IMG/VR virus record: IMGVR_UViG_3300037780_000193 | Coordinates: 1 to 48,988 of that record | Reading direction: 5' to 3' (one strand) | Origin: a virus | Taxonomy: Duplodnaviria; Caudoviricetes | Length of the DNA: 48,988 bases | In this document: piece by piece, positions 10,133-48,988 of the stretch | How the letters are laid out: every line of letters begins with the position of its first letter | Position numbering within the stretch: the first letter of the stretch is position 1 | The notes under the pieces: generated by a model | Told to the model about the DNA's origin: nothing | Seen by the model: the letters and a program-made list of their open reading frames with translations, nothing else | Database searches by the model: none | Program-made: the position numbers and the translations under genes

Positions 10133-10133
10133 G

Positions 10134-31236: not shown

Positions 31237-31340
31237 CCCGAAACACGGGCGCGTCTGGGCCCTCTCTCTCTCCCTTGCGCGTCTTGTGCGCCCCGCGAAC
31301 GGCGTTCGCGGGGCGGATTCGTACAGGTTAGGGGTGCGGC

Positions 31341-31700
31341 ATGACGAATTGGCGGGGACTGACGGCCGGGCTGATCGGCGTTGCGCGTAGCGCGTTCGGT
31401 GAGCCGGCGGTTCTGACACTGATCGGCGACGACCTGGAAATTCTGTCGGTGCATGCGGATCTCAAGGGCATTTTCTTCGATCCGACCGAGCAGGTTGCGG
31501 CGGCTGGTGACGATTCGGGATTCGATATGGAAACGCCGTCGGCCGTGTTCGCCCTGGCGGATCTGCCGGCGGCGCTGCTGGCGCCGTCCGGCTGGCGCGG
31601 GGCGACGCTTAGAATTCGGGAAACCGATTACGAGGTAATCCGAAAGCCGACTTCCGACGGACAATCCGCGATCCGATTGTTTCTGCGATTGGCCGCCTGA
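31341..31700 (+). CDS. Head-tail joining protein (gpFII-like)
   Basis: FGEP, GIFFDP, YEV....SDG...RLFL. Confidence 0.65.
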   Translation: MTNWRGLTAGLIGVARSAFGEPAVLTLIGDDLEILSVHADLKGIFFDPTEQVAAAGDDSGFDMETPSAVFALADLPAALLAPSGWRGATLRIRETDYEVIRKPTSDGQSAIRLFLRLAA

Positions 31701-31722
31701 CGAAAGCGGGCGAGGGGGTTCC

Positions 31723-32289: not shown

Positions 32290-32313
32290 GCGGGCCAGAC
32301 GAAGGAAGATCCC

Positions 32314-32502
32314 ATGACCCGATTGTTTCTGAAACCGGCCCCCGGCCGCGTTGTCCGACGTCCCGCGCCCGATGGCCGCCCGCTCGATGCCGGCGGCGCC
32401 TTTGTTCCGGACGACGTTTACTGGCGGCGCCGGATCGCCGATGGCGACGCCGTTGCCGCGAAGCCGCCCGCCGCCCCGAAATCCCAGAAAGCCGAGGGTT
32501 GA
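32314..32502 (+). CDS. DUF2635-like protein (Mu gp38 position)
   Basis: KPAPGRVVR.P..G..L...G..VP...YWRRRI.DGD. Confidence 0.85.
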   Translation: MTRLFLKPAPGRVVRRPAPDGRPLDAGGAFVPDDVYWRRRIADGDAVAAKPPAAPKSQKAEG

Positions 32503-32505
32503 TCC

Positions 32506-33996: not shown

Positions 33997-34051
33997 GCCG
34001 CTCGCGACGCCTGAAGCGGCCGGCGTGCCGCGCTGAGGAAAGGACAAAATC

Positions 34052-34417
34052 ATGCCTAATCAATTGGGCGGTGTATTACACATCATCGCCGGCGGACAAA
34101 CGCTGAGCGTGCGGGGAACCGTGACCGTGCGCCTCGGCCTCGAAGAACGCGAGACGGTGGTCGGCCAGAGCGGCGTGCATGGCTACACCGCGACGCCGAC
34201 GGCGCCCGGCCTTGATGTCGAGGTTTCCGTGCCGCCCGGTTTCGATCTCGTGGCGTTGCACGAGGTCGACAATATGACGATCCAGGCGGATCTGCGCGAC
34301 GGTCGGAGTTACATCGCGCGGGACGCCTGGTACAAGGCGGCCAGCGGCGGCGAGTTCGACGCGATCACGGCCGGCATGACGCTGAATTTCGACTGCAAAT
34401 CGATTGGGCTTGTCTGA
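34052..34417 (+). CDS. Tail tube protein, Mu gpM-like
   Basis: RETVVG..GVHGY; follows the sheath gene. Confidence 0.85.
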   Translation: MPNQLGGVLHIIAGGQTLSVRGTVTVRLGLEERETVVGQSGVHGYTATPTAPGLDVEVSVPPGFDLVALHEVDNMTIQADLRDGRSYIARDAWYKAASGGEFDAITAGMTLNFDCKSIGLV

Positions 34418-34734
34418 TGAGCGCCCCCAACGACGCCGCCACCGCCGCGCCGCAGCCGTTCCCGTTTCCCGTCCCGGTCACGATCGGTCGCGGCGAAGGG
34501 GCTCAGACGGTCGAGGCGCTTACCTTCCGCGCCCCGAAAGGGCGCGAGCTCCGAAAGGTCGGGTCGCTGTTCAGCGTCTCGCCGTCGGGGGACGTCAGCC
34601 CGAATATCGACGCCTGCTTGCGGCTCGCGGCGGATCTGGGCGGCGTACCGCCCGCCGTTATCGATGAACTTGATGCGCGCGCCGCGAACCGTCTCGCCTG
34701 GCACATCGCGGGTTTTTTCGGCGAGCAGGCTTAG
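34417..34734 (+). CDS. Tail assembly chaperone
   Basis: LTFRAPKGREL, IDELDA, GFF end; between tube and tape measure. Confidence 0.8.
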   Translation: MSAPNDAATAAPQPFPFPVPVTIGRGEGAQTVEALTFRAPKGRELRKVGSLFSVSPSGDVSPNIDACLRLAADLGGVPPAVIDELDARAANRLAWHIAGFFGEQA

Positions 34735-34898
34735 ACCCCGACGATCCCGGGGCCTTGGAACGCCTGGTCGAGCGTTATTTCGCGGCCGCGTATTTCTGGC
34801 GTCTCGATCCGACCGTCGTGTTGGGAAAGACCATCGCGGAATTGGAAGAACTTGAGGCCGGCATGGGTGTGGTGAACGCGCTCCTGAAACGGAAATGA
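34710..34898 (+). other. Programmed -1 frameshift site and extension of the chaperone
   Basis: G GGT TTT slippery heptamer at 34710-34716; the -1 frame is open to TGA 34896-34898 (FRRAGLD...AAYFWRLDPTVVL...KRK). Confidence 0.75.
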
Positions 34899-34910
34899 TC
34901 GGGTCGTGCC

Positions 34911-36659
34911 ATGGCTGCCGGTAAACAGAAGGACGTCGTTTTTCGGTTCGCCGGAATTGACGGGGTAAGCAAGATCGCGCGTGGGATCGGCCGCAATCTG
35001 TCCCGCAACCTCGGGCCGGGGCTGAGCCAACTGCGCAATGCAACCCGCGACTTGGGCCGTAATCTGCGCGGTATCGCCGGGCCGCTCGGCTTCATTTCCG
35101 GCGCGGGCGTTGTCGCGGGTCTCGGAAAGTCCCTGACGACCTTCGCGAATGTCGGGGACGAGGCGGCAAAGATGAGCCGCGCCCTGAACATGACCGCCGG
35201 CGCTTATCGGGAATTGGGTTTCTGGGCCGAACGGTCCGGCCTCTCGACCGAGCAATGGGGTGCGGCGCAGCGCGCGCTGGCGTCCCGTCTGGCGCAGGCG
35301 GCCGGCGGCGATAACGAGAAAGTCGCCAGCCTGTTGCGGACGTTGAACATCGAACTGCGCGACGCGGCGGGGAATGCGCGCCAGACCGACGCCGTTCTAG
35401 GCGACCTGGCCGCAGCCTTTGAGGCGAACACCGATCCAATTGCCCGGCAGCGGATGGCGATCGCGCTATTCGGCGAAGAGGCGGGCGTTCGCATGGTTGA
35501 CGCGATGAGCCAAGGCCGGGACGCTATGGCGGCATTGCGTGGCGAGGCGCGGCGCCTCGGGCTCAGCATGTCCCAGGAGAACGCTTCGGCGGCGGAGAAG
35601 TTGACGGACCAATGGACCGACCTGTCCCGCGCGGGCGAGGGGTTGTTCCTGACAATCGGCGCGCGCCTGGCACCGATCATCGGTCCGCTGATCGAGCAGT
35701 TGACGAACTGGATCGCGGCGAACCGGGAATTAATCTCGTCTGGGATCGGGGATTTTGTGAAAGACATTTCTGCCGCGCTTTTCCCTGCCGCACTTCACGC
35801 AAACGAGTTTGCGGGTGCAATGGGGGATGCCGGCGAAGTGGCGTCTTTAGGCGGTTTCGCGGCCTTCGTGGGGAACGTCCGAGATATCTCAGTGGCGGTT
35901 GGTGGCGTCGTCGACATGATAGGTGGGTGGGAAAACGCCGCGATCGGTATCGCGGCCGTCCTGAACGGTCCGTTGATCGCGTCGCTGTTGAATGTCGGCA
36001 TGGCCCTGTCCCGGGTCTTTCTGATGAATCCAATCGGTGCGGCCATCGCGGCGATCGCGTTCGGTGCCGTTCTGATTTACCGGAATTGGGAAGGCGTTAC
36101 GGCATGGTTTGAACGTCAATGGGGGAACATCAAAGATATCGTCATGGGGGCGGTCGATGTGATCGCGGGCATTCTGACGCTTGATCTTGGCCGCGCGTTT
36201 GGCGGTGCGAAGCGATGGGCTGCCGGGTTCACGGATTTGATTGACGGTGTACTCGACGGGATGATCGGTCAGGTCGAAGCGGTGTTGGGTCTGTTTGACG
36301 ACCTCTTTGGTACCGATGTGGTTGCCAAGCTCCGGGGTTTCACCAAAAGCATAAGCGACTTCGCGTCGAATCTCATTCCTGATTGGTTTTCTGATGACGA
36401 AACCGCAGATGCGAATGCCGATCGCGAGCAGGGTCGGCCTGGGCCGCTTGGTATCGGTCGAGGGCCCGGGACGGCGACGGACCATCTGCGCGACGCCGCC
36501 GCGGCCGGGACGGTCGGCTCTCTAGCGGTTGCCGCGCCGGTTACCGTTGACGTTCACATCGCCGGCAAGGTCGATTCCCTGGCGACGGAAGTCGACAACG
36601 GGTCGACAAAAACGCGCGATTACAACATGGACGGCGCCCTGGCGCTTGCGGGTGGGTGA
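34911..36659 (+). CDS. Tail tape measure protein
   Basis: Long Ala-rich helical protein with NPIG and LIYRNWE.V..WF motifs. Confidence 0.9.
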   Translation: MAAGKQKDVVFRFAGIDGVSKIARGIGRNLSRNLGPGLSQLRNATRDLGRNLRGIAGPLGFISGAGVVAGLGKSLTTFANVGDEAAKMSRALNMTAGAYRELGFWAERSGLSTEQWGAAQRALASRLAQAAGGDNEKVASLLRTLNIELRDAAGNARQTDAVLGDLAAAFEANTDPIARQRMAIALFGEEAGVRMVDAMSQGRDAMAALRGEARRLGLSMSQENASAAEKLTDQWTDLSRAGEGLFLTIGARLAPIIGPLIEQLTNWIAANRELISSGIGDFVKDISAALFPAALHANEFAGAMGDAGEVASLGGFAAFVGNVRDISVAVGGVVDMIGGWENAAIGIAAVLNGPLIASLLNVGMALSRVFLMNPIGAAIAAIAFGAVLIYRNWEGVTAWFERQWGNIKDIVMGAVDVIAGILTLDLGRAFGGAKRWAAGFTDLIDGVLDGMIGQVEAVLGLFDDLFGTDVVAKLRGFTKSISDFASNLIPDWFSDDETADANADREQGRPGPLGIGRGPGTATDHLRDAAAAGTVGSLAVAAPVTVDVHIAGKVDSLATEVDNGSTKTRDYNMDGALALAGG

Positions 36660-37288
36660 GAATGACTGATCCCTTCGGAGTGACCGTCAAGATCGATGCG
36701 CGCCTCGCCCAAGAGCGTTTGGGTTGGTTCGGACAGAAACAAGTGAATACGGTGCTGGCACAGGCAGCCAATAAGGCGGCTCAAGGCATGCGTTCTGCCG
36801 CCGCAAAGCTAATCCGAGAACGGGTTGGTATGTTGACAAACAAGGCGGACGTCATTCCTCGTTTCCGTCTCGACAGAGCCGATCCGCAGTATCCCGTGTC
36901 CGAAATCAGTATTGGCCGGCGGGAGATTGGTCTCATTCGGTATGTCAGAAATCAGCGGCCACCGAAAAGAAAGCCGAAAATAGGTGTCGACGCAAAGGTG
37001 TTCAATGTGAAGACGATCCATCCGGGCACGTTCTTTGTCGAGGTCGCGCCGGGGCGGTGGCAGGTGTTCAAGCGCCGGGGTCGTGGACGAACGCCAATCG
37101 AGCGGATGTACGGTCCGACCGTTGCTGGCGTCGCGCGCATTCCGGCGGTTTACGCCGAGCTTGAACGCATCGCTTCCGGTCTTCTCGACAAGCATCTGGA
37201 TGATGCGATCAATCGCCGCCTGAGAGTGTTGACCGGTCGCGCCAAACTGGCGGCGGCAGCGCAGGCGAAGTTCGACCGCGCGGGATAG
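36656..37288 (+). CDS. Lambda gpZ-like minor tail/neck protein
   Basis: A.NKAA..., basic, VFKRRG..R.PIE..YGPTV. Confidence 0.65.
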   Translation: MRMTDPFGVTVKIDARLAQERLGWFGQKQVNTVLAQAANKAAQGMRSAAAKLIRERVGMLTNKADVIPRFRLDRADPQYPVSEISIGRREIGLIRYVRNQRPPKRKPKIGVDAKVFNVKTIHPGTFFVEVAPGRWQVFKRRGRGRTPIERMYGPTVAGVARIPAVYAELERIASGLLDKHLDDAINRRLRVLTGRAKLAAAAQAKFDRAG

Positions 37289-37294
37289 AGTGTC

Positions 37295-38440
37295 ATGTCT
37301 TACCGGGACCGATTGCGCGCTGCATCGTTTCGCGGCGTACCGTTTCATGTGCAAAGCGACGATGTGTCCGGCGGCCGGGCGGTCGTGTCTCACGCCTATC
37401 CGGGGCGCGGCAGTTACCCGGAGGATCTCGGCACGCAGCCGCGGGTCATGGAGTTCGCGGCTTATGTCATCGGCGCGGATTACGATATCGACCGCGATCG
37501 CCTAATTGCGGCCCTGGAAATGCCGGGACCGGGCGAACTGGTCCATCCGCGCCATGGGTCGATGATGGCCCAGGCCGACGGGTTCACGGTGTCGGAGGCG
37601 GCAGGCCGGCAACGGCTGGCGTCGTTTCGCCTGCGGTTCGAACGTGCCGACCTGGCGCCGTCGCCGGTTTCGATCGTCGACACGCAGGCGCAGGTCAACA
37701 GGGCTGCGGATTTCGCGGATCTGGAAACCTTGGCCGGGTACGAGGCGGCATTCGATATCGCGGGATTGCCGGATTGGGCGGTCGCGCTGTCGGGCGCGCC
37801 CCTGTCCTCAGCGGCCGATCTGCTGATGGCGGGCGCGGTCGACCTGACCGCGTCGATGGGAGGTTTTGTCGATCCTGATACGGCGGCCCGCGCGGCTGGA
37901 ATTGGTACCGCCTTCGCCGATGCCGTCGCCACGGTGCGCGCGGTGTTGGATCTAACGGCCTTTGCCGATTTTGCGGAGGGCTTGACGGCGTTCGCGCCGG
38001 CCGCTGCCGGATTGGCAACGCCGACGCGGTTGCGTGCCGCCGGTAATGCGACCTTGGCGGCCGGGCTGGTCCGGCGCCTGGCATTGACCGGTTGGGCTCG
38101 CACCGCCGCCGCGGCGGAATTCGGAAACGCCGACGCGGCGCTCGGCATGCGCGCCCGATTGGGCGAGGCTCTGCGCGTTGAGGCGCTGACGGCGGCGGAC
38201 GGTTCGGAAGATCGGGCTGCAACGGCGCTGTTCGATCTGCGCGGCCGGGTGGTCGCGGATCTGACCGACCGCGCGGCCAAGTTGGAGCGCCTGGTCCCGT
38301 TCGAATTGCCGTCGGGCCCGGTCCTGGAAATCGCCCAACGGCTCTATGGTGACGGCGCGCGGGCCGAGGAGCTGATCCTCGCCGCGCCGGCGCCGCATCC
38401 CTTGTTTCACGCCGGCACCGGGCTCGCGATCGGGCGATGA
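37295..38440 (+). CDS. DNA circularization protein (Mu gpN-like)
   Basis: LRAASFRGVPF.V, H.YPGR....EDLG, LE.PGPGELVHP..G. Confidence 0.92.
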   Translation: MSYRDRLRAASFRGVPFHVQSDDVSGGRAVVSHAYPGRGSYPEDLGTQPRVMEFAAYVIGADYDIDRDRLIAALEMPGPGELVHPRHGSMMAQADGFTVSEAAGRQRLASFRLRFERADLAPSPVSIVDTQAQVNRAADFADLETLAGYEAAFDIAGLPDWAVALSGAPLSSAADLLMAGAVDLTASMGGFVDPDTAARAAGIGTAFADAVATVRAVLDLTAFADFAEGLTAFAPAAAGLATPTRLRAAGNATLAAGLVRRLALTGWARTAAAAEFGNADAALGMRARLGEALRVEALTAADGSEDRAATALFDLRGRVVADLTDRAAKLERLVPFELPSGPVLEIAQRLYGDGARAEELILAAPAPHPLFHAGTGLAIGR

Positions 38441-38467
38441 CGGAAGCCGCCGCCGGAAGGGTCCGCA

Positions 38468-39553
38468 ATGGACGTTGTGCTGGAAGTCGACGGGCTGCGC
38501 CATTTGGGTTGGACGGATGTCTCGGTAACGCGTTCGATCCGGCAGGCCGCGTCGCAATTCTCGCTCAGCGTGACTGAGCGATGGGTCGGGCAAAGCGAAC
38601 GCTGGCAGATACGCCCGGGCCAGGCCTGCACGCTGACGGTTCCCGATCCGGCGCGTCGTGTGGTGACGGGGTATGTGACCGGCTATGCGCCGTCATTCTC
38701 GGGACGGTCGCGCGGCGTCCGGATAACCGGCGCGTCGCGGACGGTCGACCTCGCGGATTGTTCCGCGGTCGTGCCGGGCGGTCAGTTTCGCGGCTACGCG
38801 TTGGATGCGATCGCCCGGGCCTTGTTGCGGCCCTTCGGCGTCGCGCTCGATCTGCGCCTGGCGCCCGGTGCGCCCTTCGCGTCGGTTGCCGTAACACCGG
38901 GGGAAGAAGTCGCGGCGCTGCTGACCCGCCTGTCGGCGGATCGCGGCGCGATCTTCCACGATGACGCCGAGGGCCGCGCGGTGATCGGCCTGCCGGCGTC
39001 CGGCCGATCGACGGGACGGTTGGTCGAAGGGGAAACGGTCCTGGAAGGGTCGGCCAACCTGGATGTTTCGGATCGGTATTCGGAGTATATTTTCAAGGGA
39101 CAGGCCTTTGAGACTGACGGGTTCCACGGCGCGCCGGCCCTCACGGGCCAGGGACGGGCGACAGACCCCGGCGTGACACGCTACCGGCCGCTGATCGTAA
39201 CGCCATCGGGCGACCAGGTCGCCGCGTCCCTGACGACCCGGGCGGCGCACGAGCGCGATCGGCGTCTCGCCGCCGGTGTCACCGCGACGGTGACGGTACA
39301 GGGTTGGGAGGAAACCCCCGGCGGCGCGCTTTGGGACGTCAACCGGATCGTCCCGGTGTGGATACCGTCGATCGGCCTGCAGCGCGACATGCTGATCGAA
39401 ACGGTGACGCTGACCCGCAGCCGCGGCGCGGGGACCGTGGCGTCGTTGGATCTGATCCTGCCGGAAGCGGTCGACGTGCAGTCGCTGGCAACCGCCGCCG
39501 CCGCGTCAGGGGCGAATTCATTCAGTTGGGCCGGACTTCAGCCGGTGGAATAG
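38468..39553 (+). CDS. Baseplate hub protein (Mu gp44/gpP-like)
   Basis: GWT.VSVTRSI, G.S.T.DL.DCS, RYRPLIV, V.GW. Confidence 0.9.
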   Translation: MDVVLEVDGLRHLGWTDVSVTRSIRQAASQFSLSVTERWVGQSERWQIRPGQACTLTVPDPARRVVTGYVTGYAPSFSGRSRGVRITGASRTVDLADCSAVVPGGQFRGYALDAIARALLRPFGVALDLRLAPGAPFASVAVTPGEEVAALLTRLSADRGAIFHDDAEGRAVIGLPASGRSTGRLVEGETVLEGSANLDVSDRYSEYIFKGQAFETDGFHGAPALTGQGRATDPGVTRYRPLIVTPSGDQVAASLTTRAAHERDRRLAAGVTATVTVQGWEETPGGALWDVNRIVPVWIPSIGLQRDMLIETVTLTRSRGAGTVASLDLILPEAVDVQSLATAAAASGANSFSWAGLQPVE

Positions 39554-39561
39554 GGGCCTCG

Positions 39562-40149
39562 ATGCGGGCGTTACAGGCAATCGCCCGGCGAGTTGCGGGC
39601 TTGATCGTACGCGGTGCATTGAAAGCCGTGGTCGACGATGGCGGCTTACAGCGCCTGGTCGTTTCGGTTCTGGCGGATGAGGTTCTGACCGTGCCTCGGT
39701 ACCAGAATTACGGTTTCACCGCCCATCCGCTGCCGGGCGCGACGGTGGTTCTGTTGTCCGCGAACGGCGTTCGCGACGGGGTCATCGCCGTCGTGGTGGA
39801 AGATCAGCGCGTTCGCCCGCCCGCATCGGCGCCAGGTGACGTTGCACAGTATGATTTCGAGGGCCAGGTCGTGCGCCTGACCCGGAACGGTGTCGAGATC
39901 GAGGGTAAAAACGTCCTGGTCAAGACGCCTGGGGTCTTTCGTGTCGACGCCGGCGAGATCGAACTGCGCGCGGAAACGTCGATGCAGACAGAGGTCTATG
40001 GTTATGGCGAGCGGGTCAAATGGACCGGCGCCAAAAACTACACCCGTGACACGTTCGGCACGGATGCGATTGTCGGCGGCGCGGCCTATCCCGTCTCGCA
40101 GCCGGCACTCGATAGCGAACATCCCGCGGCCGGCGGGGAGGGCGCATGA
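39562..40149 (+). CDS. Baseplate spike (Mu gp45-like)
   Basis: R.QNYGFTAHPLPGA, D.R.RP...GDV..YD. Confidence 0.88.
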   Translation: MRALQAIARRVAGLIVRGALKAVVDDGGLQRLVVSVLADEVLTVPRYQNYGFTAHPLPGATVVLLSANGVRDGVIAVVVEDQRVRPPASAPGDVAQYDFEGQVVRLTRNGVEIEGKNVLVKTPGVFRVDAGEIELRAETSMQTEVYGYGERVKWTGAKNYTRDTFGTDAIVGGAAYPVSQPALDSEHPAAGGEGA

Positions 40150-40727
40150 TGGCGGATGTCCGGCATGAATTTGACGGTACCAAGCTTGTAGCCGGTTGGG
40201 CGTTCGGCAACGGCGGTCTCGCGCAGGATAACGGTTTGGGTACCTCCGTCATCCACTCTCTATTCACCGACCGGATTGCGGAACCTTCCGATGAAATTCC
40301 CGATGGGAGCACGGACCGTCGGGGGCATTGGGCGGATGGGATCTCCGGATGGAAAAAGGGCTCGCGGCTCTGGCTTCTGTCACGCGAAAAGGCGACGTCC
40401 GGCGCTCTGCCCCGCGCGGAAGGGTATGCGCGCGAGGCCTTGGCCTGGATGCTGGAGGATGCGGTTGCCGACCGGATCGACGTCGAGGCGAGTTTGGAGC
40501 CGGGCGGTGCCGCGCCAATTCGCGACCGCCTGGTGCTGGTTGTGACGATTTGGAAATCCGGCGTCGCGGTCTTTGTTGGCCGTTATGGCGTGATTTGGCG
40601 GGATCTCGCCGGCGCTATCGGCGTGCGCGCGGCCGATAGTCCGGCGATACCGACCCTGGACGTTCTTGCGACCGAGGCCGGCGCCGCAATCCGGACCGAG
40701 ACGGGCCAACTTATCGAGGTGTTGTGA
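40146..40727 (+). CDS. Baseplate protein Mu gp46-like with C-terminal extension
   Basis: SLFTDR.A, RGHW.D, GSRLWLL.REK, YAREAL.W..ED. Confidence 0.88.
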   Translation: MMADVRHEFDGTKLVAGWAFGNGGLAQDNGLGTSVIHSLFTDRIAEPSDEIPDGSTDRRGHWADGISGWKKGSRLWLLSREKATSGALPRAEGYAREALAWMLEDAVADRIDVEASLEPGGAAPIRDRLVLVVTIWKSGVAVFVGRYGVIWRDLAGAIGVRAADSPAIPTLDVLATEAGAAIRTETGQLIEVL

Positions 40728-40728
40728 C

Positions 40729-41676
40729 ATGTCGTCGATCCCGGAATTGCCCGCCGCAGAGGCATTGCTGACGCCTGCCTATTTTGTCGTCCACCAGAAC
40801 GGTTCGACCCGAAAGATATCTGCCAGCGACTTCCTGGGCAGTATGGCGGGGCAGGGCGCGGACAATGTCGTCATTACCGGCGGGACCGGCGTATTCCAAT
40901 CCTTGGCCTCGCAGGGCCAGTTTTCGGTGTTCGGCGCCGCCGGATCATTGGCGAACTGTTTGAAGGCAACCTATGACGCCGCCGCAGGCGTGGCATGGTT
41001 CGGTCCGGACTCATCTGGCGGCAACACGCAGATCCGTTTCGGAACGTCGAATGCCGGAGTCTTTGCGGAGCGCATGCGAATTGCGGCCGACGGCACGTTC
41101 ACGATGAACGGCAACGTCAATATGAATGGCCGCCGACTCGATATCTTTAACATTTCGGACCCCAGCAATCAGGGGCTGCGTCTTGGAGACAACATTTCAG
41201 GCAAGCTATGGAATATCGCGCCGAATACGACGGGCGGCTTGCTCATGCGGTTCTACAACGGGTCGACCTGGCTGACGCGGCTTGCGATCGACGCGGCCGG
41301 CGTCGTGTCGCTGGGCGGCGCCGGCGGCGCGCCCGGACTCAAGGCGACGACGGTCGACCTGGCGGTGAATTTCCCCCATGTCGCCGGCGCACCGACAGGA
41401 TCGGGCGTGCGTTGGCTGGCGGACGGCGCGGACGGGTCCGTGAAATCCGAGGTTTACGCCAAAGGCGCCGCCCCTGTCGAAATCGGAAACACACTTAACG
41501 GGTGGCAGGTCAGCTTCGGGGTGTTCGGCGGCGGCGACCGGGTTCAGTTCATCCGCGCGTGTACCGCCGTTCCGTCAACCGATCCAACCGGCGGCGGGTA
41601 CCTGTTTGTCGACGCGGCCGGCGCTTTGAAATATCGCGGCCCGGCAGGAACAGTCACAGAAATTGCGCCCGCCTGA
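40729..41676 (+). CDS. Fibre/appendage-like virion protein
   Basis: MSSIPELPAA...VVHQNGSTRKIS N-terminus; ERMRI..DG and RLAID..G fibre repeats; G.LKYRG..GTVT C-terminus. Confidence 0.7.
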   Translation: MSSIPELPAAEALLTPAYFVVHQNGSTRKISASDFLGSMAGQGADNVVITGGTGVFQSLASQGQFSVFGAAGSLANCLKATYDAAAGVAWFGPDSSGGNTQIRFGTSNAGVFAERMRIAADGTFTMNGNVNMNGRRLDIFNISDPSNQGLRLGDNISGKLWNIAPNTTGGLLMRFYNGSTWLTRLAIDAAGVVSLGGAGGAPGLKATTVDLAVNFPHVAGAPTGSGVRWLADGADGSVKSEVYAKGAAPVEIGNTLNGWQVSFGVFGGGDRVQFIRACTAVPSTDPTGGGYLFVDAAGALKYRGPAGTVTEIAPA

Positions 41677-41692
41677 TAAAGGGAGAATTGCA

Positions 41693-41962
41693 ATGGGTAT
41701 GCTTAAAACCCGCCCGACCGGAACAGGCGTCGACGCGACGTACTGGATGATCGGAAATATCAATGAGGATTTTTGGTCTGGTGGCGCTCAATTGACCTTG
41801 TACGGGTTCAAGGACGAGCATGCGGCGCAGCAGAAAATGCGGCCGCTCGATGTTCTCAGCGAGACGTTCTTGGGGTCGGATTACGAACCGGATCGTTCGC
41901 GTGCGGATTGGTACGCAATTCTGGTTACCAAGCCCGACTGGAGTGGGGCCGAGATCGTTTAG
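41693..41962 (+). CDS. Small protein, probable fibre chaperone/cap
   Basis: GGAG RBS; T.TGV.ATYW.I...Y..L...P.W.GA; follows the fibre-like gene. Confidence 0.6.
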   Translation: MGMLKTRPTGTGVDATYWMIGNINEDFWSGGAQLTLYGFKDEHAAQQKMRPLDVLSETFLGSDYEPDRSRADWYAILVTKPDWSGAEIV

Positions 41963-42032
41963 GGGCCTGGTTGCCCGGCCGCGCGGTCCGCTTTGCCATC
42001 GCCATTGTTGGCGCAGAACCAGGTCAGAACCC

Positions 42033-43091
42033 ATGCCGTTTCAACGTCCCAAACTATCCGACCTGATGCGCCGGATGCTGGCGGATCTGCGCGCGAGTAT
42101 CGCCGCGCCGATCCTGCGGAATTCGAACCTGGCGGTCATAAGTGATACCGCCGCCGCCCTGGTCGATGGTGTCTATGCGTTTCAGGCATGGGCGGCGCGC
42201 CAGATCCTGCCGGACACGGCGGAAACCGCCTATCTGGATCGGCATTGCCGGATCTGGGGTGTGACGCGGAAACCCGCGACAAATGCCTCGGGCTTTCTGA
42301 CGGTGACCGGTGTCGACGGTGCGCAGGTTGTGGTCGGAACGGAATTCGCCCGGGCGGATGGTGCGCCGGTATCCGCGATCGTATCGGCGGTAATCGCGGG
42401 CGGCACCGCGCAGGTGTCGGTTGTCGCGTCACAGGCCGGGGCGGCGGGCAATGCTGAGACCGGCACAAGTTTCCGCCTGACGGCCGCTGTGTCCGGGATC
42501 GAGGCTGAAGCGCTTGTTTCGGCGCCGGGACTTGCCGGCGGCGCCGACGCGGAGACAGACAGCGCCTTGCGCGGCCGGTTGTTGGCGCGCGTACAGCGTC
42601 CGCCTGCAGGCGGCGCGGCCCATGACTATGTCGCATGGGCGAAGGCGGTCGCGGGCGTCACCCGCGCCTGGACGATCGGAGGGTTGTACGGAGCCGGGAC
42701 CGTTGGCGTTGCCGTGGCGGCGGATGACGCCGAGGACGGCCCTATTCCGTCGGCCGGCCTGGTCGCTTTGGTTCAGGCCGCAATCGACGTGCAGCGTCCG
42801 GTCACCTCCGATGCGACGGCGTTTGCGCCGACGGCCCTGGTCGTGCCGGTCGAGGTAACCGGCCTGTCGCCGGATACGCCGGAAATCCGGGCGGCCGTCG
42901 AGCTGGAACTGCAGGATCTGTTCCGCCGCGACGGCGACCTGGGGGCCGTGCTGCCGATCTCGCGTATCTGGGAGGCGGTTTCGGTTGCCGCCGGCGAGCG
43001 CCGCCACCTAATCACCGCACCCGCCGCCGATATCGAGCCCGATACGGTCGAGTTGCCGGTACTCGGGGCTGTGACCTTCCCGGGAGCGTAA
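42033..43091 (+). CDS. Baseplate J-like protein (Mu gp47)
   Basis: MPF.RP.L, QILPDTA, GGAD.E.D..LR.R, PP.GGA..DY..WA..V.GV.RAW. Confidence 0.93.
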   Translation: MPFQRPKLSDLMRRMLADLRASIAAPILRNSNLAVISDTAAALVDGVYAFQAWAARQILPDTAETAYLDRHCRIWGVTRKPATNASGFLTVTGVDGAQVVVGTEFARADGAPVSAIVSAVIAGGTAQVSVVASQAGAAGNAETGTSFRLTAAVSGIEAEALVSAPGLAGGADAETDSALRGRLLARVQRPPAGGAAHDYVAWAKAVAGVTRAWTIGGLYGAGTVGVAVAADDAEDGPIPSAGLVALVQAAIDVQRPVTSDATAFAPTALVVPVEVTGLSPDTPEIRAAVELELQDLFRRDGDLGAVLPISRIWEAVSVAAGERRHLITAPAADIEPDTVELPVLGAVTFPGA

Positions 43092-43092
43092 G

Positions 43093-43704
43093 ATGACCCT
43101 GGACGAATTGACCGCGGCCTATCACGGCGCCGCGCTGCGTTTGTTGCCGGTCGGTCTGGCTTGGCCCAAAGAGGGCGACGACGGGGCGATCCAACAATTC
43201 TGGCGCGGGATCGTGCGCGAACTCGCGCGTTTTCACCTTCGCGTCTTGGATCTGATCCGCGAAAGCGATCCGTCCGCCGCGTCCGAAATGCTGACGGATT
43301 GGGAAAGGTTTGTCGGTCTGCCCGATCCCTGCATGCCGCAATCGCCGACGATCGAGGAGCGGCGCCAGGCGGTGGTCGCAAGGTTGACGGCTCAGAACGG
43401 CCAAACGCCGGCCTTCTTTGAAGGATTGGCCGCCGCCTTGGGCTACAGCGCGACGGTTGCGGAGCGCCGGCCGTTCACCTGTGGCGTCTCGGAATGCGGC
43501 GGCGCGCATGAAATCGCGGCCGAAACGATCCGGTTCAACTGGTTCCTGCACGTCGCCGGGCCCCGGGTCGTTCATTTCCATTGCGGGGAAGGCGAATGCG
43601 GCGTTACGGCGCTGACCGACTACCGCCAGGCCGAGGATCTCAACTGCCTCGTCCAAAGATTGAAGCCGGCGCATACCGACGCCGACCTTATTTACGAGGG
43701 TTAG
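43093..43704 (+). CDS. Baseplate/tail protein YmfQ/DUF2313 (Mu gp48)
   Basis: LLP.G.AWP, ESDP, L.DWER..GLPD.C, LKPAHT. Confidence 0.92.
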   Translation: MTLDELTAAYHGAALRLLPVGLAWPKEGDDGAIQQFWRGIVRELARFHLRVLDLIRESDPSAASEMLTDWERFVGLPDPCMPQSPTIEERRQAVVARLTAQNGQTPAFFEGLAAALGYSATVAERRPFTCGVSECGGAHEIAAETIRFNWFLHVAGPRVVHFHCGEGECGVTALTDYRQAEDLNCLVQRLKPAHTDADLIYEG

Positions 43705-43707
43705 ACC

Positions 43708-44298
43708 ATGGAATATGTGCCGCCGCTCAATGGCGACCTTGAAGATCCCGACCGTGCCTATGCAAACGGGTCATCGGGTGTTCCGGGGTCCGGATCGATC
43801 CCATCCGCGAGGTTCTTCAATCTCGTACAAGCGGAATTGATCGCCCTTGTTGAGGCGGCCGGGATCGATCTCGACGACGAGGACGACGCCCAGGTCGCCG
43901 CGGCGGTCCTGGCATTGATTAAAGCCGGCGCGATCGGGGACGTCCCCTTCATGGCCGGGTTCGGGCCGGATGGCGCGGGCGCCGACCTGGAGGTCGCGAC
44001 ATATGGTTACCTGGTCCTGGCCCGGGCGATCAAGCTGACCGGGATGGCCGGGTATATCGAGGCGCCTGCGACCGGCGCTGCGGTGGTTCTGGACGTTGAG
44101 GCCAACGGGGCGACGATTTTCCAGACAGCGCCTCAATTCGCGGCCGGGGCCAACGCTATGACGGCCGGTGCCTTTACCGCCGGAGCCGCAAGCCTGACGC
44201 TGGCGGCGGGGACACGACTTACATTCAAGGTCACGCAGGTCGGGTCTAGCGTGGCGGGGCAACGCATCGGCTTCACTCTGAAGGGTGAGGCGGGCTGA
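43708..44298 (+). CDS. Short tail fibre N-terminal/adaptor protein
   Basis: G.GSIPSA.FFN.VQ.EL..LVE.AG..L....QV..A Mu-type fibre anchor. Confidence 0.75.
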   Translation: MEYVPPLNGDLEDPDRAYANGSSGVPGSGSIPSARFFNLVQAELIALVEAAGIDLDDEDDAQVAAAVLALIKAGAIGDVPFMAGFGPDGAGADLEVATYGYLVLARAIKLTGMAGYIEAPATGAAVVLDVEANGATIFQTAPQFAAGANAMTAGAFTAGAASLTLAAGTRLTFKVTQVGSSVAGQRIGFTLKGEAG

Positions 44299-44828
44299 TG
44301 CACCTCTATCCGCAAGGCGTATCGGTCCGGCCCGGGATCGGTAGCTGCTTCATCGGCGTCACGGGGGATATCACCGCCCTTGGCGTCGGTGCCTATATCG
44401 AAAGCGGGCACCGCGCGAGCGCCAGCGGCGACCGCGCGTTCGACAACAATTCGGCGAACAACTGGGAATCCGAAAGTCCCGGCACTACGGCCAGCTATAT
44501 CGGTTGGAATTGGAGCGCCGGCGAAGACGATTGCCGGGCGATTGTTCGGCGGTGGTCAATCCAGCAAGCCTATAACGCGTCCAACGGTACCAAGCTCGCC
44601 AGTACGGCCGTTCTCGAAGTGTCCGACGACCTGGTCGATTGGACAGTCGTCGATACGCGCGCGTTGAACACCGGTTTCGGCGAAGGCGCGGGGCCGGTGC
44701 AAACCTTTGACGTCGCGGTGCCGGTCCTGGCCCGCGCGGCGCGGCTGCGCCCGACGGCCTTGACCGGCGGCGGATCGATCCCGGTCTGGATCGTCGCAGA
44801 AGCCCAGTTTATCGAAAACATCGTTTAA
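44298..44828 (+). CDS. Discoidin/F5-8 type C-like carbohydrate-binding protein
   Basis: RAFDNNSANNWES, LEVSDD..DWT.V, V.E..F pattern. Confidence 0.65.
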   Translation: MHLYPQGVSVRPGIGSCFIGVTGDITALGVGAYIESGHRASASGDRAFDNNSANNWESESPGTTASYIGWNWSAGEDDCRAIVRRWSIQQAYNASNGTKLASTAVLEVSDDLVDWTVVDTRALNTGFGEGAGPVQTFDVAVPVLARAARLRPTALTGGGSIPVWIVAEAQFIENIV

Positions 44829-44840
44829 GGAGCGCCCGCG

Positions 44841-45455
44841 ATGACGCTTTATATGAAGCTGTCCGAAGACCGTACCAGCGTCGTCGGCGTCCCGGTTCCC
44901 CGGCCGATCCGCACCGATGCGGTGATCGACGGGGCGATCTATCGTCACACCGACGTTACGGCTTACAGCGACGTGGAGCTGGCCGAGCGGGTCGGTCTGG
45001 TCGCGGTCGATCCGGCCTCGGATTTCGATCCGTCGCGCCATGTCGCGGGCGGCGGCGGCGATCTGTCCGGTGACGGTCTCGCCCTGCCGGCCTATAGCGT
45101 GCGCCCCGTGACCGCCGACGATATCGCGGCGGAGGCCGAGCGGCGGATCGCGGTCGGTATCCTGGTCGATGGCGCGGCGTTCCGGGGGGACGATGCGTCG
45201 GTACAGCGCGTTTCCGAGATGCTGGACGCATTCGAACGCGCCCTTGTGCCGGTGGAAGGGGTCACTTTTGCCACCGCCGCCGGAAACGTCCTGACGTTGA
45301 CCGATACCGCCGCCGCCGCCGCGATCTACGAGGCGCTTCTGCGCCATCGCGCGGCCGTGCTGGCGACGTCTGCGGTGCTGCGGGCCGCACCGCCTGCCGA
45401 TTTCGCGGAGGATAGCCATTGGCCGGCGACCCTGACCGTCGATCTGGAAGGTTAA
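44841..45455 (+). CDS. Tail fibre assembly protein (DUF4376-like)
   Basis: AEAERRIA.GI.V.G..F..D..S, ends D..WP. Confidence 0.6.
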   Translation: MTLYMKLSEDRTSVVGVPVPRPIRTDAVIDGAIYRHTDVTAYSDVELAERVGLVAVDPASDFDPSRHVAGGGGDLSGDGLALPAYSVRPVTADDIAAEAERRIAVGILVDGAAFRGDDASVQRVSEMLDAFERALVPVEGVTFATAAGNVLTLTDTAAAAAIYEALLRHRAAVLATSAVLRAAPPADFAEDSHWPATLTVDLEG

Positions 45456-45458
45456 GCC

Positions 45459-45794
45459 ATGTTTGACCTGATCGACAAATACGTGCCGGCGGATCTCGTG
45501 AAGGCGATCTATGGCCTGACGTCGCTGTTTTTCTTCAGCTGGATCGGCCGGATGGCCTTCCATGTCCAGCAGGTTCAGAAGCAGCGCCGGAAATTCTGGT
45601 CTCTGCACCTGGTCTGGGAAACGGCCGTGGCTGTGGCCGTCGCCTTCGTTGCCGATGGTATCGCCTCCTATCTCGGCTTCACCGGACCGGTGAAGAACGG
45701 CGCAGTCGTCGCCATCGCCTATATCGGGCCGCGCGGGATCGAGACGATTGTGATCTGGCTCGCCAGCCGTCACCTGCCGAAAGCTCAGGGGTAA
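45459..45794 (+). CDS. Holin
   Basis: GR..FH...VQ...RKFWS..L.WE, AYIGPRGIE; hydrophobic segments; precedes the endolysin. Confidence 0.8.
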   Translation: MFDLIDKYVPADLVKAIYGLTSLFFFSWIGRMAFHVQQVQKQRRKFWSLHLVWETAVAVAVAFVADGIASYLGFTGPVKNGAVVAIAYIGPRGIETIVIWLASRHLPKAQG

Positions 45795-45799
45795 CAATC

Positions 45800-46270
45800 A
45801 TGCCGTTTCGGTTCTCAAATACCAGCCGCGACCGGCTGCATACCTGCCATCCGCATTTGCAGGCGATCCTGACCCGGGCGCTCGGCTGGGGGATTGTCGA
45901 TCTGACCATCATTGAAGGTCATCGTTCGGCCGAGAAACAGACCGACCTGGTTAAGCGCGGCCTTTCAAAGGCGCAGCCTTGGTCGTCGCGGCATAATGTT
46001 TCGCCGTCACTGGCGGTCGACGTCGCGCCCTTTATTGGCGGCGCGATCCCGTGGAACGACCGCGAGCCGTTTGTGCGCATGGCGGGCGTGCTGCAGGCGT
46101 CCGCTGCGGTTCAGGGCGTCGCCATCCGTTGGGGCGGGGATTGGGATATGGACTGGTCCCACCGGGACCAGACGTTCCACGACCTGCCTCATTTTGAGCT
46201 CGTCGTTTCGCCCGAGAAATTCGATCGGGCGGTGCGCGAAACCCGGGCGACCGGGTCCTGGGTCGACTGA
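45800..46270 (+). CDS. Endolysin, M15 family peptidase
   Basis: FS..S..RL...HP.L, EGHRS...Q, SRHN..PS.AVD, RWGGDW, DLPHFEL. Confidence 0.92.
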   Translation: MPFRFSNTSRDRLHTCHPHLQAILTRALGWGIVDLTIIEGHRSAEKQTDLVKRGLSKAQPWSSRHNVSPSLAVDVAPFIGGAIPWNDREPFVRMAGVLQASAAVQGVAIRWGGDWDMDWSHRDQTFHDLPHFELVVSPEKFDRAVRETRATGSWVD

Positions 46271-46340
46271 CGGCCCGTTAGCGCTGCGAAAACCGTTCGC
46301 GGGGCGATTCCCTTAAATCGAAGGAAAGGAGGGTCCGGTC

Positions 46341-46856
46341 ATGGACTCGAAACCGTTCTGGGCCTCGAAAACCATCTGGGCCAACATCCTGTCGCTGATC
46401 GCGACGATCGCGACCGTCTTCGGCGTGGATCTCGGCCTGACGCCGGAGGCGCAGGCGACGATCATCGCCGGTGTCATGGGCGTCGTGAATATCGTGCTGC
46501 GCCTGGTCACGAAGACCGGGGTCTCTGCGGCCGGCGGTTCGTCGCTCCATGCGTCGCCAATGGCCGCCATGGCGGCATTTGCGCTCACCTTGTTGCTGCT
46601 GGCGGGCTGCGCCGGCGATGCGGGCACGCGCGCGGCGGCGTCGCTGGCGGTCGCCTGCGACGGGTACGCCACGGCCTTGTCGGAACTCGCCGTCCTGCGT
46701 GAGGCCGGGTCGCTCTCCCGGGAGACGGTCTCCGCCGTCGATCGGGCGAACGCGATCGCGGACCCGCTCTGTCTTCCGGACAGTCCCGTCGATCCCGCCG
46801 CTTCGGTGGCGGTCGTTCGGGACGTCGCCGCCACGCTGAAGGGGATGTTGAAATGA
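46341..46856 (+). CDS. Membrane protein: holin-like N-terminus plus internal lipobox (spanin-like?)
   Basis: KPFWASKTIW..., two TM segments, then LLLLAGC. Confidence 0.65.
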   Translation: MDSKPFWASKTIWANILSLIATIATVFGVDLGLTPEAQATIIAGVMGVVNIVLRLVTKTGVSAAGGSSLHASPMAAMAAFALTLLLLAGCAGDAGTRAAASLAVACDGYATALSELAVLREAGSLSRETVSAVDRANAIADPLCLPDSPVDPAASVAVVRDVAATLKGMLK

Positions 46857-47023
46857 CCGAAGCGCTCAAGCTGCTGAAAACCGCCATGGCCGTTGGCGAT
46901 CTCGCGACCCGCGCGATCGAGGCGAGCAATGCCGGCAACGAGGCTGAGGCCAACGAATACCTGCGCCAGGCGCGCGCCCGCTATGCCGACGCCCGCCGCG
47001 AATGGGACGCCGCCGGCGACTAA
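46853..47023 (+). CDS. Small helical protein (56 aa, not in ORF track)
   Basis: ATGA coupling; MTEALKLLKTAMAVG...WDAAGD. Confidence 0.55.
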   Translation: MTEALKLLKTAMAVGDLATRAIEASNAGNEAEANEYLRQARARYADARREWDAAGD

Positions 47024-47052
47024 GATTTCCCCTGCCTCCAAGTCTGAACTTA

Positions 47053-47103
47053 CGCCCCAGGGGTACTCATTTTGTGAGTACCCCTGGGGCGCTTTCTTTG
47101 TTT
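47053..47103 (+). terminator. 17-bp hairpin with T-rich tail; probable late-operon terminator and first unit of the palindrome array
   Basis: CGCCCCAGGGGTACTCA-TTTTG-TGAGTACCCCTGGGGCG then CTTTCTTTGTTT. Confidence 0.7.
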
Positions 47104-47310
47104 AATCAATTGAGCGGCCTCTGGGCTTGCGGGACATAAGGCTGGGATGCCGCAAAGGGTGTCGGTACTATCGACACCCTTTGCGGTGATGCGTGTCGGC
47201 AATGTCGCCGTGCTTTTGAATGCTGGCGTGTGGACTAACATCCATAATCCGGATGTTAGTCGCAGGGTGGGGTCTAAACAGTGTTTAGACCCTTGTCAGG
47301 TTTCAAGTGG

Positions 47311-47602
47311 CGGTTCAGGTGCTCAATCGTGACAGCGGACCTTGGTTCGTGGCGGTGGGCGTGTGCCGGGTGCTGGCAGTCGGAAGTTCGTCCGATGTAG
47401 TTCGTCAATTGGACGATGATGAAAAAGCAACCATAGATACCCTCGATACTGTCGATGGTATCGCAGATTGCACGGCGTAGCAGGTTTCAATCATCAGCGA
47501 GGCCGATTTATACTTCCTGTTTCTGAACAGCCGGAAGCCGTCAGCGCAGCAGTTCAAGCGGTGGGTGTAACACGAGGTCCTGCCTCTTTGCATAGGGCCG
47601 GA
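47311..47602 (+). pseudogene. Decayed duplicate of the BRO-N coding region
   Basis: Aligns to 48207 onward at offset 896, with 7 mismatches in the first 128 nt; in-frame TAG at 47478 and TAA at 47568; no start codon. Confidence 0.9.
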
Positions 47603-47657
47603 CAGAACCTGGGGCTTGCGCGGCATAAAGCTGGGGGCGCCGCAAAGGGTGTCACTA

Positions 47658-47888
47658 CTAATGACCACCTTTGCGGAGACGCACGCCCGGGCCTTCGCCG
47701 TTTTCGTCAATGAAGATCACGCCAGCGGCTTCAAGTGTTAAGCGCATGGCATTGACGGTTGATGTTCGCACATCCTCACCACGCTCAAACTTGGTGATGG
47801 TGTTTCTATTGACTCCCGATTTGCCACTCAACTGTTGGATCGACCAACCGAGTGCTGCACGGGCCATTCTGCATTGGGCTTCGTTCAT
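47658..47888 (-). CDS. XRE-family HTH regulator
   Basis: QCRMARAALGWS...SGV.RNTI.KFERG...LEAAGVIFIDENG.GPGVRL, a common alphaproteobacterial family. Confidence 0.88.
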   Translation of the reverse strand: MNEAQCRMARAALGWSIQQLSGKSGVNRNTITKFERGEDVRTSTVNAMRLTLEAAGVIFIDENGEGPGVRLRKGGH

Positions 47889-47889
47889 A

Positions 47890-47960
47890 AATATGCATTG
47901 TGCCTATTAAGCGGCTTGACGCAACAGGCAAGTTGCATATAAATAGGCCAAATGCCTATT
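47890..47960 (+). promoter_or_regulatory. Divergent promoter region with three AATAGGC-N5-GCCTATT-like operators
   Basis: 47890-47908, 47923-47941 and 47942-47960 (perfect); TTGACG at 47916 with TATAAA at 47938. Confidence 0.7.
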
Positions 47961-47975
47961 TATGGAGGTGTCGAC

Positions 47976-48152
47976 ATGGCAGAGGTAATCGAGTTCCCGC
48001 GTTACCGTCAGGTGGCGGCGGAGGATGAAATCGCGGTCAGGCAGCTTTCGAGCGCCTACGACCGGGGTGGGAACCGCTTCCTGGCGGTTCTGAGCGGTTT
48101 GAAAATGGCCTCGACCATCTGCCGCCGTCTCGGCGGCGACGGGGCGGCCTGA
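47976..48152 (+). CDS. Small hypothetical protein
   Basis: GGAGGT RBS then MAEVIEFPR. Confidence 0.6.
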   Translation: MAEVIEFPRYRQVAAEDEIAVRQLSSAYDRGGNRFLAVLSGLKMASTICRRLGGDGAA

Positions 48153-48169
48153 TGTAAGGAGAGTGGGGT

Positions 48170-48988
48170 ATGAAAGATCTTGAGATTTTCGACTTCGAGG
48201 GCGTTGCGGTTCGGGTGCTCAATCGTGACAGCGGACCTTGGTTCGTGGCGGTGGACGTGTGCCGGGTGCTGGAAGTCGGAAGTACGTCCAATGCAGTTCG
48301 TCGATTGGACGATGATGAAAAAGCAACCATAGATACCCTTGATACTATACAGGGTATTGCAGATTGCCGGGCTGCGCAGATTTCAATCATAAGTGAGGCC
48401 GGCCTCTACTCGTTGATCCTGACAAGCCGGAAGCCGTCGGCACAGCGGTTCAAGCGGTGGGTGACGCATGAGGTCCTGCCGTCTTTGCGCAGGACCGGCC
48501 GCTATGCGCTGCCGCAAGCGGCGGCGTCCGCGCATTACCGCGATATCCTGCCGGCAATGGAGGATCTCCCGCGCCTAATCGCGACGGTCGAGGAATGCCG
48601 CCGCCTGAAAGGTCCGGAGAAGGCCTGGGCCCTATGGCTCCTGCTGGGCCTGCCCGATCCGGCGATCGATGCCGAGGACGATCCTGTCGCGATGGCCGAG
48701 GAATGGCGGTCGCTCCGCGAGCAGGGTGTCGGCACGTCGGTCATCGCCGCCGGGGCAAAGCGCTCGCCGCGCTCGGTGCAGCACTATATCGCCATGCTCG
48801 ACAAGCTGAGCGAGGAAGTTCTGACCGCGTTGCGCAATGGCGTGGTCAGCCCGTACCAGGCGCGGCTTCTGTCGTCGGCAGACCCGTCGATCCAGGGTGA
48901 GCTGCTGGAGGCGATCCGCGACGGCAAGTTCCGGACCTGCGACCAACTTGAAATGGCGATCCGGCTGGCAGGCGAGGGGGCGGACTGA
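48170..48988 (+). CDS. BRO-N antirepressor-like protein fused to a ParB-type HTH region
   Basis: FDFEG..VRV....PWFVA.DVC.VL, RLDDDEK, ISEAGLYSLIL.SRKP.A..FKRWVT.EVLPS.R.TG.Y. Confidence 0.92.
   Translation: MKDLEIFDFEGVAVRVLNRDSGPWFVAVDVCRVLEVGSTSNAVRRLDDDEKATIDTLDTIQGIADCRAAQISIISEAGLYSLILTSRKPSAQRFKRWVTHEVLPSLRRTGRYALPQAAASAHYRDILPAMEDLPRLIATVEECRRLKGPEKAWALWLLLGLPDPAIDAEDDPVAMAEEWRSLREQGVGTSVIAAGAKRSPRSVQHYIAMLDKLSEEVLTALRNGVVSPYQARLLSSADPSIQGELLEAIRDGKFRTCDQLEMAIRLAGEGAD

Follow-up and report, generated by a model that had tools for sequence, protein, structure and literature searches.

The right end of a provirus of the Caudoviricetes (record IMGVR_UViG_3300037780_000193, estimated to be 69% complete; hereafter the window, namely the whole stretch of 48,988 nucleotides that was analysed) raises the question of why the DNA upstream of a Bro-N antirepressor-like gene should hold a row of short palindromes resembling a piece of that gene's own coding sequence. 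An earlier note, made from the sequence alone, had pointed out the 21-bp quasi-palindrome that encodes a loop of the Bro-N protein (48335) and seven 21-mers of similar geometry upstream (47062, 47158, 47192, 47237, 47271, 47439 and 47648), and had interpreted them either as silent loop versions to be swapped or inverted into the gene, or as binding or decoy sites or hairpin RNAs. All eight 21-mers are present at these coordinates with the translations given, and the spacing of 34, 45 and 34 bp between four of them (centres at 47168, 47202, 47247 and 47281) is exact. Our analysis indicates that these palindromes (boxes) are very probably operators of a recognition code of Bro-N proteins, and leads us to favour, with moderate confidence, the view that the upstream array as a whole is a bank of foreign-type Bro-N sites with a docking role.

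Palindromy alone is not rare in this DNA, since 69 odd-centred 21-mers with at least 8 of 10 possible pairs occur in the 49 kb. We therefore tested the likeness of the units to the DNA encoding the Bro-N loop in other loci, using a library of 168 coding 21-mers from those loci and accepting as sites those with at least 7 pairs and at most 4 mismatches. The region 47030-47720 contained 6 matches, whereas 1000 dinucleotide shuffles gave 0.011 on average and never more than 1. No site passing this criterion lay elsewhere in the 49 kb, the 6 being located within 47062-47668. Six of the upstream units can thus be considered versions of the Bro-N loop palindrome, as had been suggested. The candidate at 47192 had to be rejected, as it has 6 pairs and 6 mismatches to the library and is part of a decayed copy of the 3' end of a repressor gene. 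Two further corrections concern 47648, which overlaps the stop codon of a helix-turn-helix (HTH) gene and is therefore not purely non-coding, and 47439, which sits in a dead Bro-N gene copy and is therefore the loop of that copy.

The palindrome of the live gene belongs to a pattern that extends across the family. We parsed 148 Bro-N loops (105 distinct) from 200 viral loci plus the window and found the loop encoded by a dyad of 21-27 bp with an A/T centre. At least 8 of 10 positions were paired in 89 of the 105 distinct loops, versus 3.4% after synonymous recoding (9.5% in the highest of 100 replicates), so that the loop is hypervariable yet still palindromic among relatives, as the earlier note had anticipated. 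The dyad centre occurs in all three codon phases (76, 15 and 9 of 100). Flanking control windows reached 8 pairs in 0 of 105 and 11 of 104 cases, the latter because of a second palindrome at the KRFKRW codons. This second palindrome lies ~100 bp 3' of the box in several GC-rich Bro-N genes (L001, L011, L014, L021; CCAAGCG-TTC-AAGCGCTGG type, 8-9 of 10 pairs) and may be a matter of codon chance or a second site. The bases flanking the centre of the loop dyad are complementary A/T in 66 of 67 distinct 27-mers, although a hairpin could not pair them, and the mismatches show no G.T excess (28 G.T versus 50 A.C). Complementarity up to the centre and the lack of G.T excess point to a symmetric duplex site instead of an RNA stem, and the palindromy of the Bro-N loop is selected at the DNA level.

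The bases of the box covary with the helix of the protein predicted to read them. From 442 viral and bacterial sequences we obtained 296 genes (227 distinct) and, with 14 dropped for having fewer than 7 pairs, 199 helix-site pairs. Mutual information across these pairs peaked at three helix positions (0.83, 0.68 and 0.62 bit). In the numbering of the window protein, the helix residues concerned are 41, coupled to base 4 of the half-site, 40, coupled to base 7, and 38, coupled to bases 5-6. On the right arm, R40 was accompanied by C7 in 77 of 79 cases, N38 by A6 in 122 of 124, D41 by C4 in 67 of 88, K, M or Q41 by T4 in 49 of 52, and N41 by G4 in 12 of 14; counts on the left arm were nearly identical, the same base being demanded on both arms of the box. 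Arg-G, Asn-A, Asp-C and Gln-A, on either strand, are the usual pairs between side chains and bases. Helix types are denoted hereafter by residues 38, 40 and 41.

This covariation is not dictated by the encoded peptide. When the code was trained on 162 genes sharing one frame and applied to 37 genes in other frames, in which the same bases code other amino acids, 34 of these had their own site ranked in the top quarter (0 of 2000 shuffles). In disjoint pairs of close relatives, residue and base changed jointly in proportions of 56:0, 55:1, 45:0 and 37:0, with only N41-G4 being less clear (7:1). Silent positions followed the helix as well: Ile was ATC with D41 in 22 of 24 cases and ATT with Q, K or M41 in 16 of 16, Thr was ACC with D41 in 26 of 26, and Asp was GAC with R40 in 65 of 65, with Val codons accompanying D41 as an exception (GTG in 8 of 11). 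GC content does not explain this pattern. Silent positions and other frames led us to reject protein-protein coevolution between helix and wing as the cause of the covariation. We also discarded a nucleotide pairing between helix codons and box, as the base stays the same when a residue is encoded by different codons: Arg40 goes with C whether encoded by CGN (84 of 84) or AGR (15 of 16), so that the residue matters and not the codon. Box-first searches recovered the helix that the code predicts: of 61 in-gene sites in one search 53 had N-R-x, and of 30 in another 26 had D-x-N. Some of these loci overlap the training set, and a few of the misses are frame-parsing errors. Leave-one-out scores averaged +4.3, compared with -8.3 for random pairs.

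A structural model of the window Bro-N domain (predicted local distance difference test, pLDDT, 82) has helices at 27-33 and 39-44 followed by a wing, and residues 38, 40 and 41 open the second helix. Its fold is KilA-N/APSES-like, with Orf22 (Z score 10.7, root-mean-square deviation (rmsd) 2.9, 99 aligned residues) and Mbp1 (Z score 7.5, rmsd 2.9, 87 aligned) as relatives; Foldseek gave no match at an E value of 0.001, and a sequence search of solved structures retrieved only designed repeat proteins, which is not meaningful. The domain is predicted to form a symmetric dimer: the homodimer scored 0.68, compared with 0.01 for the best control, with 100% contact agreement and pLDDT of at least 79; solved pairs attained the score mark in 20 of 30 cases and single chains in 1 of 23. 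The contacts involve the family-conserved residues 76-85 and 95-114, and in the model the two helices would engage half-sites separated by about 11 bp. On either side of the centre the covarying bases occupy positions 4-7, which puts the two sets roughly one helical turn from each other, a spacing that such a dimer would need. The DNA-level dyad, the covariation of bases and helix, and the predicted dimer make the dyad most likely the own operator of each Bro-N protein. The binding-site side of the original proposal is thus supported by the covariation. The silent library has become improbable, because base changes track the helix encoded 45-60 bp upstream and not the loop peptide; with type set by the helix, a loop swap alone would not change specificity.

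Two kinds of observation about helix types deserve mention here. Two Bro-N domains of different types occur within one chain (P0007, P0009, P0012), and some phages carry two consecutive Bro-N genes (L225/L226). In addition, GTAG-ended repeats resembling repetitive extragenic palindromic (REP) elements in L679, L707, L708, L710 and other metagenome matches share a GGTACGCA..TGCGTACC core with boxes of the M-S-D type, which suggests chance or a host target of that type; these repeats were set aside. The window units themselves are not GTAG-type REP elements, as GTAG/CTAC ends are absent.

In the light of this code, the window units match the coding boxes of D-x-N, N-R-D, N-G-N, N-T-M and N-R-Q/M genes, that is, five foreign helix types. 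The array lies within the gene order lysis genes (holin, M15 peptidase), 47020-47660, HTH_3 gene (minus strand), 66-amino-acid (aa) open reading frame (ORF), and Bro-N gene (Table 1). Unit 1, positioned after the lysis genes, has arms reaching 17 bp, is followed by a weak Bro-N remnant, and forms a terminator-like hairpin with a GC stem and a T run (47053-47091; 1 found, compared with 1.7 expected in shuffles); none of the other array units passes these terminator criteria. The extended unit 2 hairpin had no match in an exact search of viral contigs. One module is present in two versions, at 47123-47192 and 47612-47682, with the palindrome placed on the stop of the HTH gene or of its decayed copy, and the units that they hold, 2 and 6, differ on both arms at the type-defining base. 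Several units have arms lengthened by copies of adjacent DNA. Part of the array is indeed debris of dead genes, an origin that the earlier note had seen as contrary to its proposal, but the boxes have been preserved much better than the surrounding debris; the window bank is partly decayed. Orthologous HTH-Bro-N modules (L442/L443, L444, L474/475/477) have other types and no array, and the window array is therefore derived. In L444 (2045-2725), three tandem HTH_3-like genes replace the single repressor-like gene.

Table 1 Features of the window and of the Bro-N box array at its right end.
Feature	Position	Strand	Paired positions (of 10)	Remarks
Provirus record	1..48988
Unit 1	47062..47082 (feature 47053..47091)		8	D-x-N type; 1 mismatch to coding box; TTT centre
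Module A end	47123..47225			Copy of 47612-47682; holds unit 2
Unit 2	47158..47178		9	N-R-D type; at stop of decayed in-frame copy of HTH-gene 3' end (minus strand)
Rejected candidate	47192		6
Unit 3	47237..47257 (feature 47233..47261)		8	N-G-N type
Unit 4	47271..47291		10	Perfect dyad; N-T-M type; at expected start position of dead Bro-N copy
Dead Bro-N copy	47307..47601	plus		Helix S-S-D; two stops; 85% identical to 48203-48498
Unit 5	47439..47459		8	Loop box of dead Bro-N copy; x-S-D type
Module B end	47612..47682			Holds unit 6
Unit 6	47648..47668		7	N-R-Q/M type; overlaps stop codon of HTH gene
HTH_3 (XRE-type) repressor-like gene	47658..47888	minus		76 aa; family match
Divergent control region	47886..47964			Own inverted repeats, unrelated to Bro-N boxes; kept in relatives L442/L443
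Small ORF between HTH and Bro-N genes	47952..48152	plus		66 aa; no family match
Bro-N antirepressor-like gene	48170..48988	plus		272 aa; C-terminal part with weak ParB-type HTH match
Recognition-helix codons S38-T39-S40-N41	48281..48292	plus		Opens second helix of HTH; 38, 40 and 41 are the family code positions
Intragenic box of live gene	48335..48355		8	Codes TLDTIQG in wing; half-site positions 4-5 degenerate; poor fit to own helix

Mixed arrays are not restricted to this provirus. In a survey of 420 distinct Bro-N loci, non-coding boxes occurred within 1 kb upstream in 22 of 277 loci (window included; at least two boxes in 9), compared with 6 of 290 downstream (at least two in 2), which agrees with the expectation that such units are enriched near Bro-N genes; because the set was partly collected by box-first searches, these figures are not prevalence. 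In the gene-first loci, of which 236 were covered, 12 boxes fall within the first 250 bases upstream, the other bins giving 0-2.5%. When the upstream boxes of 13 loci were scored against the resident helix, 24 of 33 were negative, that is, foreign (the mis-parsed row of the window being excluded, 5 loci unparsed, and 2 of the 33 boxes probably due to chance). Arrays were found in L653, L631/L695, L613, L513, L020, L738, L739, L327 and L393. Those of L653, L631/L695 and L613 comprise at least five, six and four types, respectively, and each ends shortly before a TTGAC-type -35 element. A promoter scan confirmed a sigma-70-like promoter after the array in L653, L631, L513, L020 and L076, in which the arrays are compact, free of gene debris and end 10-43 bases before the -35. 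L020, L513 and L076 are related yet have different boxes, and in all three the last box ends 10-11 bases before the -35, a position that could suit activation. The promoter-like site following these three arrays has a 19-bp spacer.

Other loci illustrate how such arrays vary. In L020 and L513, the in-gene dyad has been lost and the own-helix type is kept as the far box of the array, and the L513 loop is a hybrid joining halves of two types. L739 has boxes at the 3' end of a repressor gene, as in the window, and L738 contains two arrays, neither having a Bro-N gene less than 2 kb away. In L327 and L393 boxes lie among broken Bro-N pieces, L327 holding also partial cassettes with other helices, and in L613 the first box is accompanied by 30 bases of the downstream sequence of its own gene. 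The arrays of L631 and L695 are very compact, with adjacent boxes overlapping by three bases (centres 18 bp apart); their leader, 3' of the promoter, has complementary GGTTAGAAAC/GTTTCTAACC elements, which we take to resemble C4/seq-type control. Boxes of different types also occur in frame within other reading frames (L509:1500-1547, L551, L669 on the minus strand at 1395-1580, and L717); in L509 this is a low-complexity ORF beside a capsid-like gene, and in L669 an N-terminal extension of a Bro-N protein that lost its own box.

We propose the following scenario. Each Bro-N dimer would bind the box in its own gene and limit its own transcription. With helix codons and box within about 60 bp, the specificity cassette would move as one, and key and lock moving together by short recombination would account for the many types found on similar backbones. 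Boxes would reach the upstream region as pieces of duplicated or captured Bro-N genes and then outlast the debris; such copying is suggested by the own-gene flanks in L613 and by the debris in the window, L327 and L393. Foreign-type boxes would be kept because Bro-N proteins of co-resident or incoming phages dock there, beside the control region, and their usual location ahead of a promoter points to an action of foreign Bro-N proteins at that place. Where a promoter follows the array, sensing is more likely than pure sponging. That the array senses neighbour phages at all is a possibility that we raise tentatively, and we hold with similar reserve the idea of a Bro-N signalling layer in which prophages gather the locks of other types before an antirepressor promoter, as a panel that detects or disarms a waking neighbour phage.

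Several observations weigh against this interpretation. Concerning the code, the cross controls of the pair test were also significant, though weaker (31:8, 32:8 and 21:1), because whole types travel together. A tree-based test had too little power, with at most 4 supported independent pairs; 46 of 244 genes had a leave-one-out score below zero, and D41 occurred with G in 12 of 72 frame-1 genes. In the fold relative PCG2 the wing reads bases too, not the helix alone (PMC4333399), and by analogy the wing peptide encoded by the box may itself contact that box. The live gene of the window misfits its own box (-7.6, among the lowest 16 of the 244 leave-one-out values) and scores +9.7 on unit 1 and +1.7 on unit 3 (+4.0 and +4.3 with a smaller training set), a weak prediction because its S-S-N triplet was absent from training; the dead copy scored about zero on its own box (+1.6 and -0.9). 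As for the array, the scan detected no sigma-70-like promoter beside that of the window, which the HTH gene separates from the promoter of the live gene. About nine in ten Bro-N genes have no upstream box, and for most of them the DNA within 1.6 kb contains no further cognate site (mean rank 0.48-0.49), so that a nearby second self-type operator as a general rule was rejected. A second Bro-N gene matching the foreign boxes was not shown in 10 records, most of them incomplete and with two second genes belonging to another subfamily.

Alternatively, the boxes might be Bro-N operators and the window array nevertheless a relic of repeated cassette replacement or duplication, with no selected role for foreign proteins; template switching would repair palindromes and one of them would serve as a terminator, such that dyads outlast the rest. 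The location of units in the dead copy of the Bro-N gene and the decayed one of the HTH gene, the arms extended by copies of neighbouring DNA, the terminator-like unit 1, in which a second strain has a pair-breaking change, the lack of an array in the orthologous modules, the broken Bro-N pieces of L327 and L393 and the gene-derived flank in L613 are all in keeping with this idea. We nonetheless consider it rather unlikely, as it leaves unexplained the compact, debris-free arrays immediately before the -35 in L653, L631, L513, L020 and L076, the upstream bias, the recurrence of the repressor-3'-end layout in L739, and the type switch on both arms between units 2 and 6.

It appears very improbable that the units serve as a silent store from which the live gene is varied by recombination or inversion. 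Orthologous modules do carry different types, hybrid loops such as that of L513 exist, dead copy and live gene are identical over long stretches, and L327 has partial cassettes with other helices; at most, the dead copy could donate helix and box together by ordinary homologous recombination. But the short units lack the type-setting helix codons and a shared crossover site, a stop interrupts unit 4 in either orientation when it is read in the usual frame of the loop, and in the contigs of the second strain the Bro-N domain is unchanged and joints are absent. The stops in array boxes are weak as proof against donor use, since TGA and TAA centres are the reverse of TCA and TTA. Searches of the record, 69% complete, found no reverse transcriptase family member and no match to PF00589 or PF00239 (tyrosine and serine recombinases), in line with what had been noted before. 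Still less credible are RNA or single-strand DNA hairpins (messenger RNA structure or small RNAs) recognised by Bro-N or the host. The segment 47030-47320 folds far better than shuffles (z -9.84) and unit 1 forms a terminator-like hairpin; however, the complementarity up to the central base, the lack of a G.U excess on the coding strand, the occurrence of both centre orientations and the need for the same base on both arms, which is what a dimer bound to duplex DNA would require, all argue against hairpins, and Rfam gave only weak microRNA-like matches in 46800-48988, far below gathering scores, and no C4/IsrK-type regulatory RNA.

The docking-site reading can be compared with several known systems. 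The repressors of lambda, 434 and P22 are dimeric HTH proteins acting on odd, A/T-centred dyads, and their helices and operators diverge into specificity (immunity) groups. The Bro-N pairs are alike in the odd dyad and the covariation of helix and operator, the dimer being here a prediction, but the operators of those repressors are at promoters and all of own type, whereas the Bro-N operator lies inside coding sequence and the array holds foreign types. Closer in one respect is the Roi protein of phage HK022, an antirepressor-like protein that Clerget and Boccard reportedly described in 1996 as binding a site within its own gene; its N-terminal domain is said to be of a different family. Roi reportedly involves one site in one phage, unlike a family-wide code with arrays of foreign sites. 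Diversity-generating retroelements (DGRs), shufflons and CRISPR arrays also set variant short sequences in a row beside a gene holding one variant. The dead and live Bro-N copies differ at all four bases, however, and not at adenines only as in a DGR; no common crossover site like that of a shufflon was found around the window units, and no identical repeats between unique spacers, as in CRISPR, were found in the window array.

Among systems from the literature, the stoperators of Cluster A mycobacteriophages are repressor sites in transcribed DNA that can block elongation (PMC9283540), and provide a model for the action of the in-gene Bro-N box. They are many copies of one asymmetric, monomer-bound site, whereas Bro-N has one symmetric site per type, with none elsewhere in the window. 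In the Gifsy and Fels prophages, a trans-acting antirepressor of one phage affects another prophage in the same cell (PMC3121763), in that case by protein-protein contact with repressors, while we propose a foreign protein acting on resident DNA sites. Bro-N (PF02498) proteins, such as Phi11 Gp07 (PMC5944126) and those of the 'Bro network' (PMC10111431), are described as DNA-binding regulators with swapped C-terminal domains, and the window gene is a member of this group; in the parts seen, these accounts contain no DNA site, recognition code, in-gene operator or operator arrays. Searches of the open-access literature retrieved no paper on an in-gene Bro-N site or on mixed Bro-N arrays.

The window Bro-N protein matches PF02498 with 80.2 bits (cut-off 25.6) as well as PHROG Ant families, and its nearest named homologues are from Nitrospirillum, Azospirillum and Tistrella; "antirepressor" is an annotation name, the activity being putative. 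The inverted repeats of the divergent control region are likely operators of the HTH protein. A second strain showed 15 differences across 46700-48988, with one in unit 1, 10 in the C-terminal part of the Bro-N gene (48577-48946), none in the Bro-N domain and the same loop. No joints indicating rearranged alleles were seen in this comparison, which covered contigs from four runs, two of them (X7 and X8) with partial coverage of the stretch; no RNA run was listed among the sequencing runs. No relative of the Bro-N C-terminal domain was confirmed among viral contigs. Finally, a 15-bp dyad, GCGAAC-N3-GTTCGC, occurs in the window at 7476, 9862, 12298, 18969, 25407, 31295 and 39760 (13 strand matches, compared with 0.08 expected); it has the look of an operator used throughout the genome by a different regulator, without relation to the Bro-N boxes.

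The Bro-N proteins, which rank with the most common regulators of phages, bear the name antirepressor, and no DNA site is known for them in the open-access literature that we searched. From sequence alone, the code described here assigns a testable site to thousands of these proteins and yields a compact set of natural, likely orthogonal protein-operator pairs. The mixed arrays, if our reading of them is true, would represent a DNA-level path for cross-talk between phages in one cell, and would make it possible to predict which foreign proteins act on a given prophage.

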